This document shows positions 3,801 through 42,654 of a stretch of 64,000 nt of DNA, piece by piece. The notes under the pieces are model-generated. The model did not search any database and was not told where the DNA came from. It saw nothing but the letters and a program-made list of their open reading frames with translations. The position numbers and the translations under genes were made by a program. Each line of letters begins with the position of its first letter. Position 1 is the first letter of the stretch. The DNA comes from Myxococcota bacterium (lineage in GTDB: Bacteria > Myxococcota_A > UBA9160 > UBA6930): positions 1,280,001-1,344,000 of the forward strand of contig OZ245002.1 in the NCBI GenBank assembly GCA_965223415.1, given 5' to 3'.

Positions 3801-4202
3801 ATGAAGGTCTTCAAGCGGATCGCCATCGCGCTCGTGGTCTACGTCGGACTCGTCGCGGCCTTCGAGTCGCTGATCGGGGTCCTCCAGCCCGCCGGGGAGT
3901 CCACCCTCGTCCTCACCACGGTGGACGCGGACGGCACCACCCACGACCGGGTGCTGGCCCAGCTCGAGAGCGATGGCAAGCTCTACGTCGCGGCCAACCA
4001 CTGGCCCCGGGCCTGGTACCACCGCGCCCTCGAGAACCCGGAGGTCCAGGCGACGGTCGCCGGCGAGACGGGCGACTACCGGGCCGTGCCGGTGAGCGAC
4101 GCGGAGCACGATCAGGTCGACGGCAAGCGCAGCCTCGGGCTGGTGTTCCGGATCCTGACCGGCTTCCCGCCCCGCTACTTCCTGCGCCTCGATCCTCGTT
4201 AG
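3801..4202 (+). CDS. Split beta-barrel nitroreductase/quinone reductase-like protein with N-terminal TM helix
   Basis: AGGAGG RBS; LVLTT...LYVAAN...WYHRALENPEV pattern of FDOR/DUF2255-like proteins. Confidence 0.6.
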   Translation: MKVFKRIAIALVVYVGLVAAFESLIGVLQPAGESTLVLTTVDADGTTHDRVLAQLESDGKLYVAANHWPRAWYHRALENPEVQATVAGETGDYRAVPVSDAEHDQVDGKRSLGLVFRILTGFPPRYFLRLDPR

Positions 4203-4221
4203 AGGGCGAATCCGCGGGCGA

Positions 4222-5232
4222 TCAGCCCGCCTTCACGAACTTCGCGACCACCCGCGCGAGCTCGTCGCCCCGGCCCTCCTGCAGGAAATGGCCGCCTCCC
4301 CGGATCGTCACGTGCTCCTGGCCGCTGGCGCCGGGGATGCGCGCGCGCAGAATCGCGTCGGCGCCACGGGTGACCGGGTCGTTGTCGCTGAACGCACAGA
4401 GGAGAGGCTTCTCCCACTTCGAGAGCACCTCCCAGGCCGCGCGGTTGGCCGGGATCGAAGGATCGTCCGGGAGGGTCGGCACCTGACTCGGCATGGCCCG
4501 CGGCCCCATCTTGAAGCTCGGGTCCGGGAAGGGTGCGTCGTAGGCGGCGATCTCACCGGGCGAGAGCTGGCGGTCGCCGCCGGCGCCCGCCATGACCATG
4601 GCGATCGGGAGGTCCTCGGTCTCCCAGCACCACTTCTGCCAGTGGCCGAAGGTGAGCTCGGGCCGCTCCGGGTCAGGGTTCGAGATGGCCGCCATCATCT
4701 CGGGCATGGTGGGCGTCGGTGCGTCGCTACGGAAGGCGTGATAGGCGTCGATCCGCGCCTGGGGGATGTCCTGGGGAAGCGGCAGGCCCGTGTTGGCCAC
4801 GACGACCCGATCGAAGCGCTCCGGGTTCTCGGCGACCATCCGCAGGCCGATGAGCCCGCCCCAATCCTGGCCGACGAAGGTGAGGCCGCGCAGGTCGTTC
4901 CGGACCAGCCAGGCGGTGAGCCAATCGACCTGACGCTGGTAGCTGTAGTCCTCGCGAGCCGCCGGCTTGTCCGAGCGGCCGAAGCCGACCAGGTCCGGCG
5001 CCACGACCCGCAGGCCGGCGCCGACCAGCACCGGGATCATGTGGCGGTAGAGGTAGCTCCAGGACGGCTGCCCGTGCATGCACAAGACGGTCGGGGCGCC
5101 GGCGGGGCCCTCGTCCACGTGGTGGATCCGGAGGGAGCCGCCCTCACCGTCGGGGACGTCGGTGTAGCGGGGGGCAAAGGGGTAGCCGGGGAGATCGGCG
5201 AAGCGTTCGTCGGGAGTGCGGAGGATCTTCAC
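4222..5232 (-). CDS. Haloalkane dehalogenase (alpha/beta hydrolase)
   Basis: LRTPDERF, HGQPSWSYLYR, PDLVGFGRSDKP, GQDWGG nucleophile elbow, GHFLQE. Confidence 0.92.
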   Translation of the reverse strand: MKILRTPDERFADLPGYPFAPRYTDVPDGEGGSLRIHHVDEGPAGAPTVLCMHGQPSWSYLYRHMIPVLVGAGLRVVAPDLVGFGRSDKPAAREDYSYQRQVDWLTAWLVRNDLRGLTFVGQDWGGLIGLRMVAENPERFDRVVVANTGLPLPQDIPQARIDAYHAFRSDAPTPTMPEMMAAISNPDPERPELTFGHWQKWCWETEDLPIAMVMAGAGGDRQLSPGEIAAYDAPFPDPSFKMGPRAMPSQVPTLPDDPSIPANRAAWEVLSKWEKPLLCAFSDNDPVTRGADAILRARIPGASGQEHVTIRGGGHFLQEGRGDELARVVAKFVKAG

Positions 5233-38988: not shown

Positions 38989-39891
38989 ATGGCCGAAGCA
39001 AAGACGACCCCCCAGCTGCGCGACGTGACCGAGAGCGGGAGTGAGTTCGCCCTCAGCGAGGACGAGCTCCGAACCGTCACCGGAGGCCGGGCCTTCCTCG
39101 ACCTCCTGGACCAGAAGCGCTTCTCCACGAAAAAGCTGCAGTCGACGTTGAACTACGAGCGGGAGCTCCGCAAGCTCCAGATCGAGATGGTCCAGCTCCA
39201 GCGGACCGTCCAGCTCACCGGCCGCCGTGTCGCGCTCATCTTCGAGGGGCGCGACGCTGCGGGCAAGGGCGGAACCATCCGGCGCTTCGTCGAGCACCTG
39301 AACCCGCGGACCGCGCGGGTCGTGGCGCTCCCGAAGCCCACGGAGGTGGAGCAGGGACAATGGTACTTCCAGCGCTACGTCTCCGCGCTGCCCAACCCCG
39401 GTGAGATCTGCTTCTTCGACCGCTCCTGGTACAACCGCGCCGTCGTCGAGCCGGTGATGAACTTCTGCTCCGAGGAGCAGTACAAGCAGTTCATGCAGCA
39501 AGTCCCGGAGTTCGAGCACATGCTCTACGAGGACGGTGTCGAGCTGATCAAGTTCTGGTTCTCGATCTCGAAGCGCGAGCAGAAGGAACGCTTCGATTCG
39601 CGCCGCGGCGACCCCCTGAAGCAGTGGAAGATCAGCCCGGTGGACGAGCGCGCCCAGGAGCACTGGGACCTGTACACGAAGTACAAGGAAGCCATGTTCA
39701 GCCGGACCCACACGACCTACAGCCCGTGGATCATCGTGCGCGCGAACTCGAAGAAGAAGGCTCGCCTGGAGAGCATGCGCTACGTGCTGAACAACGTCGA
39801 CTACGACCATCGGGACAAGGCCGGAACCTCCCTCCACCCCGATCCGGACATCGTGAAGCGGTTCCACCGAGCGACGTCTCAGATCGACTAG
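38989..39891 (+). CDS. ppk2: Polyphosphate kinase 2
   Basis: FEGRDAAGKGG Walker A, QWYFQRY, FDRSWYNR, KQWKISPVD. Confidence 0.95.
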   Translation: MAEAKTTPQLRDVTESGSEFALSEDELRTVTGGRAFLDLLDQKRFSTKKLQSTLNYERELRKLQIEMVQLQRTVQLTGRRVALIFEGRDAAGKGGTIRRFVEHLNPRTARVVALPKPTEVEQGQWYFQRYVSALPNPGEICFFDRSWYNRAVVEPVMNFCSEEQYKQFMQQVPEFEHMLYEDGVELIKFWFSISKREQKERFDSRRGDPLKQWKISPVDERAQEHWDLYTKYKEAMFSRTHTTYSPWIIVRANSKKKARLESMRYVLNNVDYDHRDKAGTSLHPDPDIVKRFHRATSQID

Positions 39892-39915: not shown

Positions 39916-41151
39916 TCATCGCCGGGGCCGCGTCCCCCGCCGCCTCCTCCGCGCCGCCAGCTCGAGCCGCAAGCTCTTCGCGATGAACCGGGGCAGCCCG
40001 AGGGGGTTCCGGCGGAGCTTGCGGAGGATCAACCGGCGCATGTGGGGCATCGCGTCGTAGCTTCCCTCGCGCTGGCCGTGGCCGATGTGCATGGCGAGGG
40101 CGGGCACGTCGACGACGTCCATGGGAAGCTCCAGGTGGAGCGTCTCGGTCTTCGGCAGCAGACAGGTCTGTTCGTCGCAGGCCTGGTAGCGGACGTTCAC
40201 CTCGAGGCGCGCGGTCTCCGCGTCGAGGGGACGGAGCTCGCTGGCGAGCTCACCGGTCGGGTAGAAGGGCACGGCAATGTCCACGGTGCCGCTCCAGACT
40301 TGGAGCTCCAGGTCCATGCTCGCAAGGCACAGGGGCTCGGTGGGCGGAAGGATCGGGTCGAGCACCGTCAGGCCCGGGGGTCCCTCGACCTGCACCGTCG
40401 TCGGCACCATGCCCTCGGGCACGGGCTCGCCGTAGAGGTGGAGCCCCGGGCCCAGCTCGAAGCGGACGACGAGCTTGCGCATGATGCCCTGGCGGATGCT
40501 GCCGTCCCCGCCGTGGACCGCTGCGGTGACGTGGATCTGGTCGTCGCCAGCTTCCGCTCGGGGCGCCGCATCGGACAGCTCGATCCGGCCCAGGGCGGCG
40601 TCGATCAGCGTCTCCGGGCTGTCCCGCTTCTTGTAGGTGTCGTGGAAGAACTTCGCGACGACGATGCCGTCCTCGTCGGTGACGAAGACGCCGGGGAAGG
40701 CCACGCCGTACAAGAAGGCGTCGTCCTCGCCGACGGAGGTGTTCAGCACGCCGTAGCGCCGGATCACCTCCGACTCGACGTCCGATAGCAGCGGGAAGGA
40801 GACGTCCCGCTTCAGGGCAAACTCCCGCAGTGCGGGCTGGTCGTCGTAGGAGATGGCGTAGAGCTTGATGCCGGCCGCCTCGAACTTCTCGCGGGCGTCG
40901 CGCAGCTCGCCGAGCTGCGTCCAGCAGGGGGGTCACCAGACGGCGGAGCGGTAGAAGACCAGGGCGGCCTTCGAGCGGCCGCGGTCGGCGTGGAAGTCGA
41001 TCTCGCGACCGAAGGCGTCGGGAAGGCTGAAGTCCGGCAGCCGTTCGCCCACCTCGGGGCCCGTGACGTGGCCCTCGGGCAGACCGCTTCGGGCGGGGTG
41101 GCCCAGCGGTGCCGGTGCGTCGAAGCCGTGCTCGTCGCGCTCGACCGTCAT
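39916..41151 (-). CDS. Predicted selenoprotein (Sec73, UxxC): AhpC/TSA thioredoxin-fold domain fused to a DsbD N-terminal-like domain, 411 aa
   Basis: An in-frame TGA at 40935-40933 joins two ORF-track pieces. The read-through is GPEVGERLPDFSLPD...LVFYRSAVW-U-PPCWTQLGEL...GIKLYAISYD...FPLLSD...PGVFVTDEDG, then YQACDEQTCLLP. A SECIS-like hairpin follows the UGA. Confidence 0.88.
40901..40919 (-). promoter_or_regulatory. Candidate bacterial SECIS element
   Basis: On the mRNA: UGA, 13 nt, then CGCAGCUC-GGC-GAGCUGCG. This is a perfect 8-bp stem whose G-starting apical loop follows the UGA after a 21-nt spacer. Confidence 0.7.
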
Positions 41152-41924
41152 ACAGGAGATCTCTCGTGTCGGCGGGTGATCAGCTTGCGAGGGTGGCGAC
41201 CGTCCACGTAGCCGACGAAAGTGCCCGCGACGAGCTCGTAGCCCACCAGGGCCTGGATGCGCTCCGAGTAGCGGGCCGCGACGTCCGGCGGCACGGCCAG
41301 GAACTGGTTCTCGAGCTGGCGCAGCCACGGCTGGCAGTACTGGACCGTCAGCCCCAGGCGCTTGCCGCTCGAGCGGTTCGCGCCCGAGCGGTGATACAGC
41401 GTGCCCGGGAAGACCGCGACGCTCCCGGACGCCATCAACAGGGGGACGCCCATGCGTTCCATCTCCGCCTGGGGCGGGGCCGGCGTCTCCCAGAGATGAC
41501 TCCCGGGAATGACGTCCGTTGCGCCGTTCTCGGCGGTGAAGTCATCGAGGGCCCAGATGGTCGAAACCCCCTGCACCGGACGGGGCGGCGGGGGCGCGCC
41601 GAGCGCGTCGTCCTGGTGGAAGCCCTGGGGCGTCTCGCCTGGGTGCAGGTTCACCACCAGGGCCGCCGAGAGCAGGAAGCTCTCGCGGAGGAAGCGGCCG
41701 ACGAGCTCGAGGACGGCCGCGTGCTCGACCAGCGGCGCGACCGCGGGCACCTTGGCCAACAAACTGTAGACGCGCTCGGTCCTGAAACCCTCGAAGTCGT
41801 TGCGCCCCATCAGCTCGGACCGGAGGTACGGCCCGAGCTGCTCGCGGAGCGCCGCGACCTGGGAGGGGTCGATGGCGGAGGGGAGGACGACGTAGCCGTC
41901 GGTTTCGAGACTCGGAGAGGCCAC
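41148..41924 (-). CDS. Phytanoyl-CoA dioxygenase (PhyH) family protein
   Basis: DGYVVL, QGFHQDD (HxD), WALDDFTAENGATDVIPGSH, LYHRSGAN, WLRQLEN; ATGA overlap with the selenoprotein. Confidence 0.9.
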   Translation of the reverse strand: MASPSLETDGYVVLPSAIDPSQVAALREQLGPYLRSELMGRNDFEGFRTERVYSLLAKVPAVAPLVEHAAVLELVGRFLRESFLLSAALVVNLHPGETPQGFHQDDALGAPPPPRPVQGVSTIWALDDFTAENGATDVIPGSHLWETPAPPQAEMERMGVPLLMASGSVAVFPGTLYHRSGANRSSGKRLGLTVQYCQPWLRQLENQFLAVPPDVAARYSERIQALVGYELVAGTFVGYVDGRHPRKLITRRHERSPV

Positions 41925-41928
41925 ACCT

Positions 41929-41940
41929 CTACGGTATCCT
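41929..41940. promoter_or_regulatory. Bidirectional promoter: overlapping -10 boxes driving two leaderless genes
   Basis: CTACGGTATCCT contains TATCCT (+) 6 nt before ATG 41947 and TACCGT (-) 6 nt before GTG 41924. Confidence 0.6.
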
Positions 41941-41946
41941 GCCGCC

Positions 41947-42654
41947 ATGGCCGACGCCCCCACCCTCTACACCGCGCGAGCCTGCAACTTCTGCCACCGC
42001 AGCCGGATCGCCTTCGCCGCCAAGGGTGTCGAGCCGGAGCTCGTCGAGATCGATCTCGTGAAGCGCCCCTCCTGGTTCCGCGACAAGGCCTCGGGCGGCA
42101 GCGTGCCGCTGCTCGAGTGCAAGGACGGCGCCTTCCACGGCTCGGCCATCATCAACGAGTACGTCGAGGAGCGCTGGCCCGAGCCGACGCTGCTGCCGGG
42201 CTCGCCGGCGGAGCGCGCCGAGGCGCGCATGTGGATCCACTGGTGGAACCGCGCGCCGACGCCCCGCTACGAAGAGCTGCTGATGAACGTGCGGCCGAAG
42301 CGGGAAGACGAGCTGCGCGAGCGGCTGCTCTCGGCTCTCGTGGAGTGCGAGGAACGGCTGGTGGCGCGGGGCTACGGCGGCGGCTACTGGCATGGTGCGT
42401 CGCTGGGCCTGGTCGACGCCAGCGCCGCGCCGGTCTTCGATCGCTTCGTCGGGCTGCGGCACTTCCACGACGTTGACGTTCCGGAGGAGCTGGGCCGCGT
42501 GCGCGCCTGGCGGGACCACCTGCTCGCGGACGAAGTCGTGCAGCGGTGCTCGCCGGGAGAGGACGCACTGCTCGAGGTCTTCTCGGGCTACCGGGACGTC
42601 CTGGCCAAGGCGGCGGAGGCGGGCATCGAGGTCCCGGTGTCGGGCGGTGACTGA
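41947..42654 (+). CDS. Glutathione S-transferase family protein with CxxC (omega/SspA-like)
   Basis: ACNFCHRSRIA, GSVPLL, SAIINEYVEE, LVDA N-capping box. Confidence 0.85.
   Translation: MADAPTLYTARACNFCHRSRIAFAAKGVEPELVEIDLVKRPSWFRDKASGGSVPLLECKDGAFHGSAIINEYVEERWPEPTLLPGSPAERAEARMWIHWWNRAPTPRYEELLMNVRPKREDELRERLLSALVECEERLVARGYGGGYWHGASLGLVDASAAPVFDRFVGLRHFHDVDVPEELGRVRAWRDHLLADEVVQRCSPGEDALLEVFSGYRDVLAKAAEAGIEVPVSGGD

Follow-up and report, generated by a model that had tools for sequence, protein, structure and literature searches.

Can the two redox centers of a DsbD-type relay work within one protein that has neither an export signal nor a membrane domain? The question is raised by a gene with an internal in-frame TGA codon on the minus strand of a 64,000-nucleotide (nt) stretch of DNA from a Myxococcota bacterium (the window, i.e., positions 1,280,001 to 1,344,000 of contig OZ245002.1, assembly GCA_965223415.1). 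An earlier inspection of the letters (the sequence-only reading) had described here a selenocysteine (Sec)-containing AhpC/TSA domain fused to a domain resembling DsbD's N-terminal domain (nDsbD), and had proposed an intramolecular relay from U73/C76 to C325/C330 in the cytoplasm. Based on sequence comparisons, structure models and analogy with known systems, we favor, with modest confidence, the view that the gene encodes a cytoplasmic two-center selenol/thiol-disulfide oxidoreductase built from a single selenoprotein of 411 residues.

The reading frame starts with the ATG at position 41151 of the minus strand and is open upstream of the internal TGA. A scan with one genome per species yielded 77 related loci; in most of them, full-length tblastn matches began at residue 1, and the start motif MT(I/V)ERD..GFDAPAPLGHP was common to them. 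The sequence-only reading had numbered U73, C76, C325 and C330 correctly, but its range, 39916..40935, covers only the part from the TGA to the stop codon, while the coding sequence begins at 41151. The loci come mostly from marine metagenome-assembled genomes (MAGs) labeled Myxococcota/Deltaproteobacteria, Halieaceae/Pseudomonadales and Alphaproteobacteria, plus a few from Acidimicrobiia and Gemmatimonadota with 39–42% identity, and the selenoprotein is common in marine bacteria. An in-frame TGA in the context W-TGA-P-P-C is found in 72 of the 77 loci, well above what chance would give, and none of them has Cys at this position. Among the remaining five, two matches end at a contig edge (L086 and L095), two are distant and comprise the second domain only (L096 and L097), and one is a Halioglobus MAG copy (L081:2423-3982 (-), 3974-5038 (+)) whose first ~80 codons, including the Sec codon, have been lost to a transposase open reading frame (ORF). 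In a set of 41 genomes related to the window's own, 11, counting the window's, carry the gene, and all 13 matches in them have one internal TGA. Three of these matches are found in G007, a genome of the same genus (C38:1115-2338, C279:2-1114 and C108:7425-8612); one of them is only 45% identical, and G007 may therefore hold a second Sec-containing paralogue family.

Cys-form relatives were sought among 1.84 billion cluster representatives, of which 8727 were hit with E values of up to 0.001. The best 150 of these, which were examined, include full-length two-domain proteins with 25–44% identity, and 25 of them were aligned. At the column of U73, 21 of these 25 distant relatives have Cys and the other four have Ser or Trp. 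No Cys counterpart above about 44% identity was found among the best 150 of the 8727 hits. Two candidates for a close Cys form were rejected: P0242 is a frameshifted read, and P0247 is a 72-residue piece preceding the TGA. As no such counterpart was found, Sec may be hard to replace in this family, which makes the family a candidate for a reaction of that kind.

The machinery for inserting Sec is present in the window's genome, a single 5.83-Mb contig. This genome has a tRNA-Sec with the anticodon TCA (69.4 bits, compared to a gathering score of 47), selA (497 bits), selD (253 bits) and selB with both the GTPase and the SelB winged-helix domains. The selA gene was also present in all five other carrier genomes tested. 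It does not discriminate carriers, as 38 of the 41 related genomes have it, 10 of 11 carriers among them; the one carrier without it, G016, has a completeness of 85%. The distance from selA to the selenoprotein gene is ~6–13 kb in two complete genomes (G001:C1:1438655-1440010 vs. L050 at 1423103-1432284, and G003:C1:4444444-4445784 vs. L069 at 4453518-4462726); this is not the case in the window's genome, G002 or G004.

A local hairpin follows the UGA. Its 8-bp stem starts 14 nt past the TGA and is closed by a GG(U/C) loop (window 40919..40901); in bacteria, selenocysteine insertion sequence (SECIS) elements stand a short distance past the UGA and carry G in the apical loop, as this hairpin does. 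In 72 sequences (the window and 71 loci; L059, which contains N, was omitted), 95.2% of the cells in the hairpin columns are paired, compared to 20–48% with the partners shifted by 1 to 3 columns. One pair covaries, changing from G:C to A:U in five sequences and to G:U in 10, and the other pairs are nearly invariant. Codon usage was followed in a family alignment of 66 full-length sequences, i.e., the window and 65 loci, with L028 trimmed to family length; loci at contig ends (L034 and L061), containing N (L056, L059 and L091) or frameshifted (L071 and L090) were left out. Codons 76–84 are the site of the lowest-entropy 7-codon stretch in the gene (0.58; mean 1.37, standard deviation 0.46), and in all 66 sequences Thr78 is encoded by ACG and Glu82 by GAG. 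The synonymous sites support the hairpin independently. A scan of the window against Rfam at gathering thresholds returned no match to a curated SECIS or any other RNA family, and the RNAalifold consensus retained only four of the eight stem pairs. Taken as a whole, the 71-nt fold has no stability beyond that of its shuffles (z 0.89), and only the local hairpin is informative. The hairpin is also kept in a distant Sec-containing branch of Gemmatimonadota and Acidimicrobiia MAGs (L092, L093 and L094; 39–42% identity), where W-U-P-P-C is followed by a hairpin whose loop is GGUC and whose outer stem is longer, and the C-terminal tail with the H-G-H-G-Q-R-E motif is absent.

Because the TGA is conserved, the hairpin and the suppression of synonymous changes accompany it and the genome encodes the Sec machinery, we regard the decoding of UGA codon 73 as Sec as established short of a labeling experiment, and the assignment of Sec to a CxxC-type site by the sequence-only reading is upheld.

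How would such a protein work? In the mechanism that we propose, U73/C76 and C325/C330 would exchange a disulfide or selenenylsulfide, as do the thioredoxin (Trx)-like and alpha domains of DsbD, without the membrane transporter, and the protein would act on the cytoplasmic side. Electrons would more likely enter at C325/C330 from a cellular reductant (i.e., the thioredoxin or glutathione system), move on to U73/C76 and end at the substrate, because Sec is usually found where the final substrate is attacked. We infer this U73/C76 to C325/C330 relay by analogy. In mammalian thioredoxin reductase, a dithiol of the C-x4-C type serves to reduce a Cys-Sec selenenylsulfide, and the latter in turn reduces the substrate; that enzyme differs in that its folds are unrelated, it is driven by a flavin and its Sec motif, GCUG, is at the C-terminus. 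In DsbD, electrons are transferred directly from the gamma to the alpha domain and from there to DsbC, DsbG or CcmG (PMC3322552, Cho et al. 2012, in the part available). Like the window protein, E. coli DsbD joins a Trx-fold center of the CxxC type and an Ig-fold DsbD_N domain with a cysteine pair in one polypeptide. In contrast to E. coli DsbD, the window protein lacks both a membrane beta domain and a signal peptide, its Trx fold comes first, Sec replaces Cys, the second pair is spaced as C-x4-C and the domains, which are tethered in DsbD, are rigidly packed in the model.

The first of the two centers lies in a domain matched by Pfam AhpC-TSA at residues 34–166 (E 2.7e-28). The order of the AhpC/TSA and nDsbD-like domains was given correctly by the sequence-only reading, and the peptide stretches that it cited are present in the protein. 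All NCBIfam models stay below their cut-offs; the highest score is that of a thiol peroxidase model (55.8 bits vs. 140). Residues 31–191 superpose on peroxiredoxins (Prx), such as BcpB 5epf (Z 16.5; root-mean-square deviation (rmsd) 2.3 over 153 residues) and AhpE (Z 16.3), and more weakly on ResA (Z 12.5 by structure and E 1.4e-11 by sequence). Foldseek matches of this domain have template-modeling scores to the target of 0.85–0.89, and BCP 2cx3 is matched at E 9.2e-19. In the 2cx3 alignment, the PxxxS/TxxC motif has its Cys opposite C76 and its Ser/Thr opposite U73; the position of the Pro is taken by S69, and the invariant P153 stands where BCP has Arg. The residues of PxxxT/SxxC and the active-site Arg are catalytic in peroxiredoxins. 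The domain has the Prx fold without this signature, and it has W-C/U-x-x-C at the first long helix of a Trx fold (W72-U73-P-P-C76), with helix 74–85 beginning directly after U73 in the DSSP assignment of the model. The scaffold is thus Prx-like and the site is of the CxxC type (here UxxC), as in TlpA/ResA-like oxidoreductases.

The protein could alternatively be a selenium-based peroxidase, which would be a special case of the relay: a hydroperoxide would oxidize U73, C76 would resolve it and the DsbD_N-like domain would recycle the site. The better fit of the first domain to BcpB, AhpE and BCP than to ResA is in favor of this alternative, the best NCBIfam match, below its cut-off, is a thiol peroxidase, and periplasmic peroxiredoxins fed by DsbD-type systems are described in the available part of PMC3322552. 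We nevertheless consider a peroxidase unlikely, given that S69, U73 and the invariant P153 occupy the Pro, Thr/Ser and Arg positions of the missing signature and that none of the peroxiredoxin models of NCBIfam, not even the best, comes close to its cut-off.

The second center lies in a domain that the sequence-only reading had likened to nDsbD. The domain is nDsbD-like because profile, fold and signature agree. Pfam DsbD_N (PF11412) matches residues 225–340 (E 1.7e-8; 34.9 bits vs. a cut-off of 25), and the cysteine pair stands in the signature YQAC-x4-C-x2-P. Folded alone, the C-terminal half gave a mean predicted local distance difference test score (pLDDT) of 90.3 and a predicted template-modeling score (pTM) of 0.78. 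Its best structural match by VIA-align is ScsB-alpha 6c29 (Z 12.4; 126 residues; rmsd 2.6), followed by E. coli DsbD-alpha 1jpe (Z 10.8; 109 of 116 residues; rmsd 2.7) and Neisseria nDsbD 2k0r (Z 10.5), and the next unrelated fold has a Z of 9.2; the first eight chains returned by Foldseek are all ScsB or DsbD-alpha. The profile of the C-terminal half found nothing among the PDB sequences at E up to 1. Q323, C325, C330 and P333 are invariant in all 66 Sec forms and in all 25 Cys-form relatives, and the pair on which the proposed relay depends is thereby kept throughout the family; conservation does not extend to the window protein's C275. The other residues invariant in 66 of 66 sequences include W72, U73, P74, P75, C76, T78, Q79, L80, E82, L83, P153, G154, H238 and Y240.

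The conserved His residues of the N-terminal extension, the Ig domain and the H-x-G-H-G-Q-R-E motif suggest a different role for the second pair, in which no relay would occur. C325/C330 would then be a structural site or, together with H18, H238, H355 and H358, a metal or metalloid site, and the domain would serve to bind a substrate, or as an adaptor for one, e.g., copper, mercury or selenium species. Such a role would fit with the best structural match, ScsB, which is part of a copper-stress system (PMC3322552, in the part available), and with two signal-bearing Cys-form relatives (P0207 and P0256) in which the first-domain motif is CxxS or SxxC and the second pair is kept. The YQxC...C..P signature and the fold are, however, those of the redox-active DsbD-alpha pair, and no metal-binding family was matched in Pfam or NCBIfam, which makes the absence of a relay distinctly unlikely. 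It should be noted that P0207 and P0256 also keep the motif of the N-terminal extension.

The two domains are predicted to form one compact, rigid body (AlphaFold2 with the family alignment; mean pLDDT 93.6, pTM 0.91). The N-terminal extension, in which D6, G9, R21 and G31 are invariant, has a pLDDT of 90–93. At the other end, the tail folds into a strand (residues 361–366) and two helices (368–381 and 385–406) with a pLDDT of 85–94. It has a conserved H-x-G-H-G-Q-R-E motif and the highest helical hydrophobic moment of the protein, the last 45 residues include 17 K/R and one D/E, and residues 346–411 have no Pfam match. Because the tail is modeled with more confidence in the full-length protein than in the half (blocks of 85–94 vs. 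74–89), it would seem to rest against the first domain. In the model, both the extension and the basic strand-helix-helix tail belong to the fold.

By its sequence, the protein is not exported. The best Kyte-Doolittle mean of the window protein is −0.03 over 12 residues within the first 50 residues and 1.13 over 19 residues, and the maxima over the 66 family members are 0.78 (12-residue, N-terminal) and 1.65 (19-residue). No family member (0 of 66) has an N-terminal hydrophobic stretch or a transmembrane segment, as the sequence-only reading had stated for the window protein. A signal peptide is not hidden upstream, because the upstream frame closes within a few codons in the relatives and extends only 16 codons beyond the match in the closest one (423 vs. 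407). The usual setting of DsbD_N domains, i.e., the periplasm, together with a DsbD/CcdA-type membrane domain that they are joined to or that feeds them, is not apparent from the sequence.

In their N-termini, most Cys-form relatives differ from the Sec family. All 25 keep C325 and C330 and none has the tail; 19 have a signal-like N-terminus and six do not. A quick maximum-likelihood tree of 20 sampled Sec forms and the Cys-form relatives contains a split with a Shimodaira-Hasegawa-like approximate likelihood ratio test (SH-aLRT) support of 100. All 20 Sec forms lie on one side, together with P0131, P0132, P0140 and P0185, which are four Cys forms that lack a signal, and two forms that bear one and have a degenerate first motif; on the other are 17 signal-bearing forms, two signal-less forms and P0136, a 616-aa Cys-form relative with the two-domain module in tandem. 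The Sec label needs one change on this tree, on a branch with a support of 65. The Sec family belongs to a signal-less branch of an architecture that, given the widespread Cys forms and the tree, is old and mostly periplasmic. The combination of AhpC-TSA and DsbD_N noted by the sequence-only reading is thus real, but it is not unique to this protein.

These relatives raise the possibility that the Sec forms are exported by an unrecognized route and work in the periplasm, downstream of DsbD, ScsB or CcdA. The DsbD_N fold is known from there, and in P0207 and P0256 the N-terminal extension motif stands behind a signal-like segment. In the Sec family itself, however, a hydrophobic N-terminus was found in none of the 66 members and the relatives' upstream frames close within a few codons, and the Sec forms group with the four signal-less Cys forms, split at SH-aLRT 100 from 17 of the 19 signal-bearing ones. 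Export is therefore very improbable.

A cytoplasmic relay built on Sec nonetheless has several points against it. Hydrophobic N-termini are found in 19 of the 25 Cys-form relatives, and the places where the DsbD-alpha fold is otherwise known are periplasmic. No conserved neighbor of the gene indicates a partner or substrate. The covariation of the hairpin is thin, at one of eight pairs, and the conserved peptide TQLGEL could explain much of the hairpin's conservation.

The DsbD-alpha fold is known as the periplasmic terminus of an electron path across the membrane. The window protein may be the first case of a DsbD-alpha-type domain in the cytoplasm, i.e., a self-contained relay without a transporter, in which electrons would pass between a dithiol on an Ig fold and an obligate selenolate/thiol pair of the same rigid protein, perhaps with its basic amphipathic tail at the inner membrane face, and which would serve an unrecognized class of substrate in marine bacteria; we offer this only tentatively and hold it to be doubtful. 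If true, a signal-less DsbD-alpha fold joined to a Sec-containing Trx fold would show that a periplasmic relay can be reused without its transporter.

That the TGA is a true stop, leaving two genes or a pseudogene with the downstream 283-aa ORF standing alone, might be concluded from the public gene calls, but it is already contradicted by the same-frame conservation across the TGA in 72 loci, the alignment of the relatives' active-site Cys with the TGA, the hairpin, the Sec machinery in the genome and the loss of the first half of the Trx fold from the called fragments, and its probability is next to nil. Database relatives numbered 639 at E up to 0.001; the best 120, which were inspected, are all 283–334 aa long and all carry PF11412, and 20 of these, which were aligned, all start at or after residue 83. 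These entries are gene calls that restart downstream of the TGA. Two of the fragments are labeled 'redoxin domain-containing protein' by NCBI, and some are labeled 'AhpC/TSA family/Thiol:disulfide interchange protein DsbD, N-terminal' by JGI. In consequence, a widespread marine selenoprotein is systematically halved in annotation, and no NCBIfam model covers it.

The selenoprotein is not new as such. The Global Ocean Sampling (GOS) selenoproteome lists a 'Prx-like 1' class (pfam00578, UxxC, 225 sequences), and 10 W-U-P-P-C-W reads of the window family stand under '#Prx-like 1' in its Dataset S1, one of which extends into the second domain; the family was thus already cataloged in 2008 (PMC2398784). 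The window family shares with this class the pfam00578 domain and the UxxC motif with Sec in first position. The class is defined by its first domain only, whereas the window family adds the DsbD_N domain, the N-terminal extension and the basic tail. In the available text of PMC2398784, the term 'DsbD' is absent and the section on domain fusions omits the present one. Table 1 of a 2026 review has the entry 'Prx-like thiol:disulfide oxidoreductase', and in the part available the review mentions DsbD only for TsoB (PMC13188914).

Among known systems, ScsB-alpha is the best structural match of the second domain, and it provides a precedent for an alpha domain separate from the transporter, as split systems of CcdA, a Trx-like protein and ScsB-alpha exist (PMC3322552, in the part available). 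Unlike these envelope systems, which are fed by a membrane transporter, the window locus shows no such context. The Cys-form AhpC-TSA + DsbD_N proteins (e.g., P0161, P0174 and P0193, and the closest signal-less forms, P0131, P0132, P0140 and P0185) have the same domains in the same order, with the motifs RSA(D)WC-x-x-C and YQAC-x4-C at 25–44% identity. They differ from the window family in having Cys for Sec, signal-like N-termini in 19 of 25 and no H-G-H-G-Q-R-E tail. In their sources they are named just 'peroxiredoxin' or 'hypothetical protein', and no characterized one was found in the literature searched. In line with the sequence-only reading, which knew of no characterized example, the literature found, supplements of other papers not being covered, contained neither a description of the fused protein nor an experiment on it, and the selenoprotein is, as far as this literature goes, uncharacterized at the bench. 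Nor does that literature, as far as we could find, describe the fusion with DsbD_N, the missing export signal or the basic tail, which is conserved. The features of the gene are listed in Table 1.

Table 1. Positions in the window of the selenoprotein gene, its parts and the gene upstream of it.
Feature	Position	Strand	Remarks
Whole selenoprotein gene	39916..41151	-	411 codons; stop TGA 39918..39916; one internal in-frame TGA
Sec codon 73 (W-U-P-P-C)	40933..40935	-	TGA in 72/72 covering loci and 66/66 alignment rows
C76 codon, second residue of the UxxC pair	40924..40926	-	Invariant in 66/66; on the peroxidatic Cys of BCP 2cx3
SECIS-like hairpin, CGCAGCUC-GGC-GAGCUGCG	40901..40919	-	14 nt after the TGA; GG in the loop
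N-terminal extension, residues 1–33 (ERD..GFDAPAPLGHP.R)	41053..41151	-	Conserved, non-hydrophobic
Prx/Trx-fold domain, residues 34–191	40579..41052	-	Pfam, structure matches, DSSP
DsbD-alpha/ScsB-alpha-like Ig-type beta-sandwich, residues 195–345	40117..40569	-	Pfam DsbD_N, fold matches
C325 (40179..40177) and C330 (40164..40162) in YQAC-x4-C-x2-P	40162..40179	-	Invariant
Clade-specific tail, residues 346–411	39919..40116	-	H-x-G-H-G-Q-R-E motif; one strand, two helices
Upstream PhyH-family gene	41148..41963	-	Stop overlaps the selenoprotein start codon (ATGA)

The gene has no conserved neighbor: PhyH was found in three and polyphosphate kinase 2 (PPK2) in one of the 77 loci, and the largest cluster of neighbors covers 11 of 72 loci. 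When the 134 ORFs that flank the gene in 72 loci were surveyed with Pfam, glutathione S-transferase (GST) was found in eight loci and MFS_1 in eight, with the rest scattered; one of the 134 ORFs (in L090) is the gene's own frameshifted C-terminal half. No gene for a DsbD/CcdA-type transporter was found among the 134 ORFs. In the window, a GST gene (41947..42654, +) lies two genes from the selenoprotein gene, and the eight loci with a flanking GST gene are L023, L035, L036, L042, L044, L076, L078 and L085. In L028:5234-6175, the reading frame runs on into a GST with no stop between, giving an open frame of 725 codons. A link to glutathione is at most weakly hinted at, because MFS transporters flank the gene equally often.

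The PPK2 gene of the window (38989..39891, +) is convergent to the selenoprotein gene, and the same neighbor, 73% identical, occurs only in L036:4823-5986. On the other side, the TGA stop of the gene for a PhyH-family protein (phytanoyl-CoA dioxygenase) overlaps the selenoprotein's ATG (41151..41148), which suggests that the two are translationally coupled in the window; in the three related loci with a PhyH gene nearby, the two genes are not adjacent.

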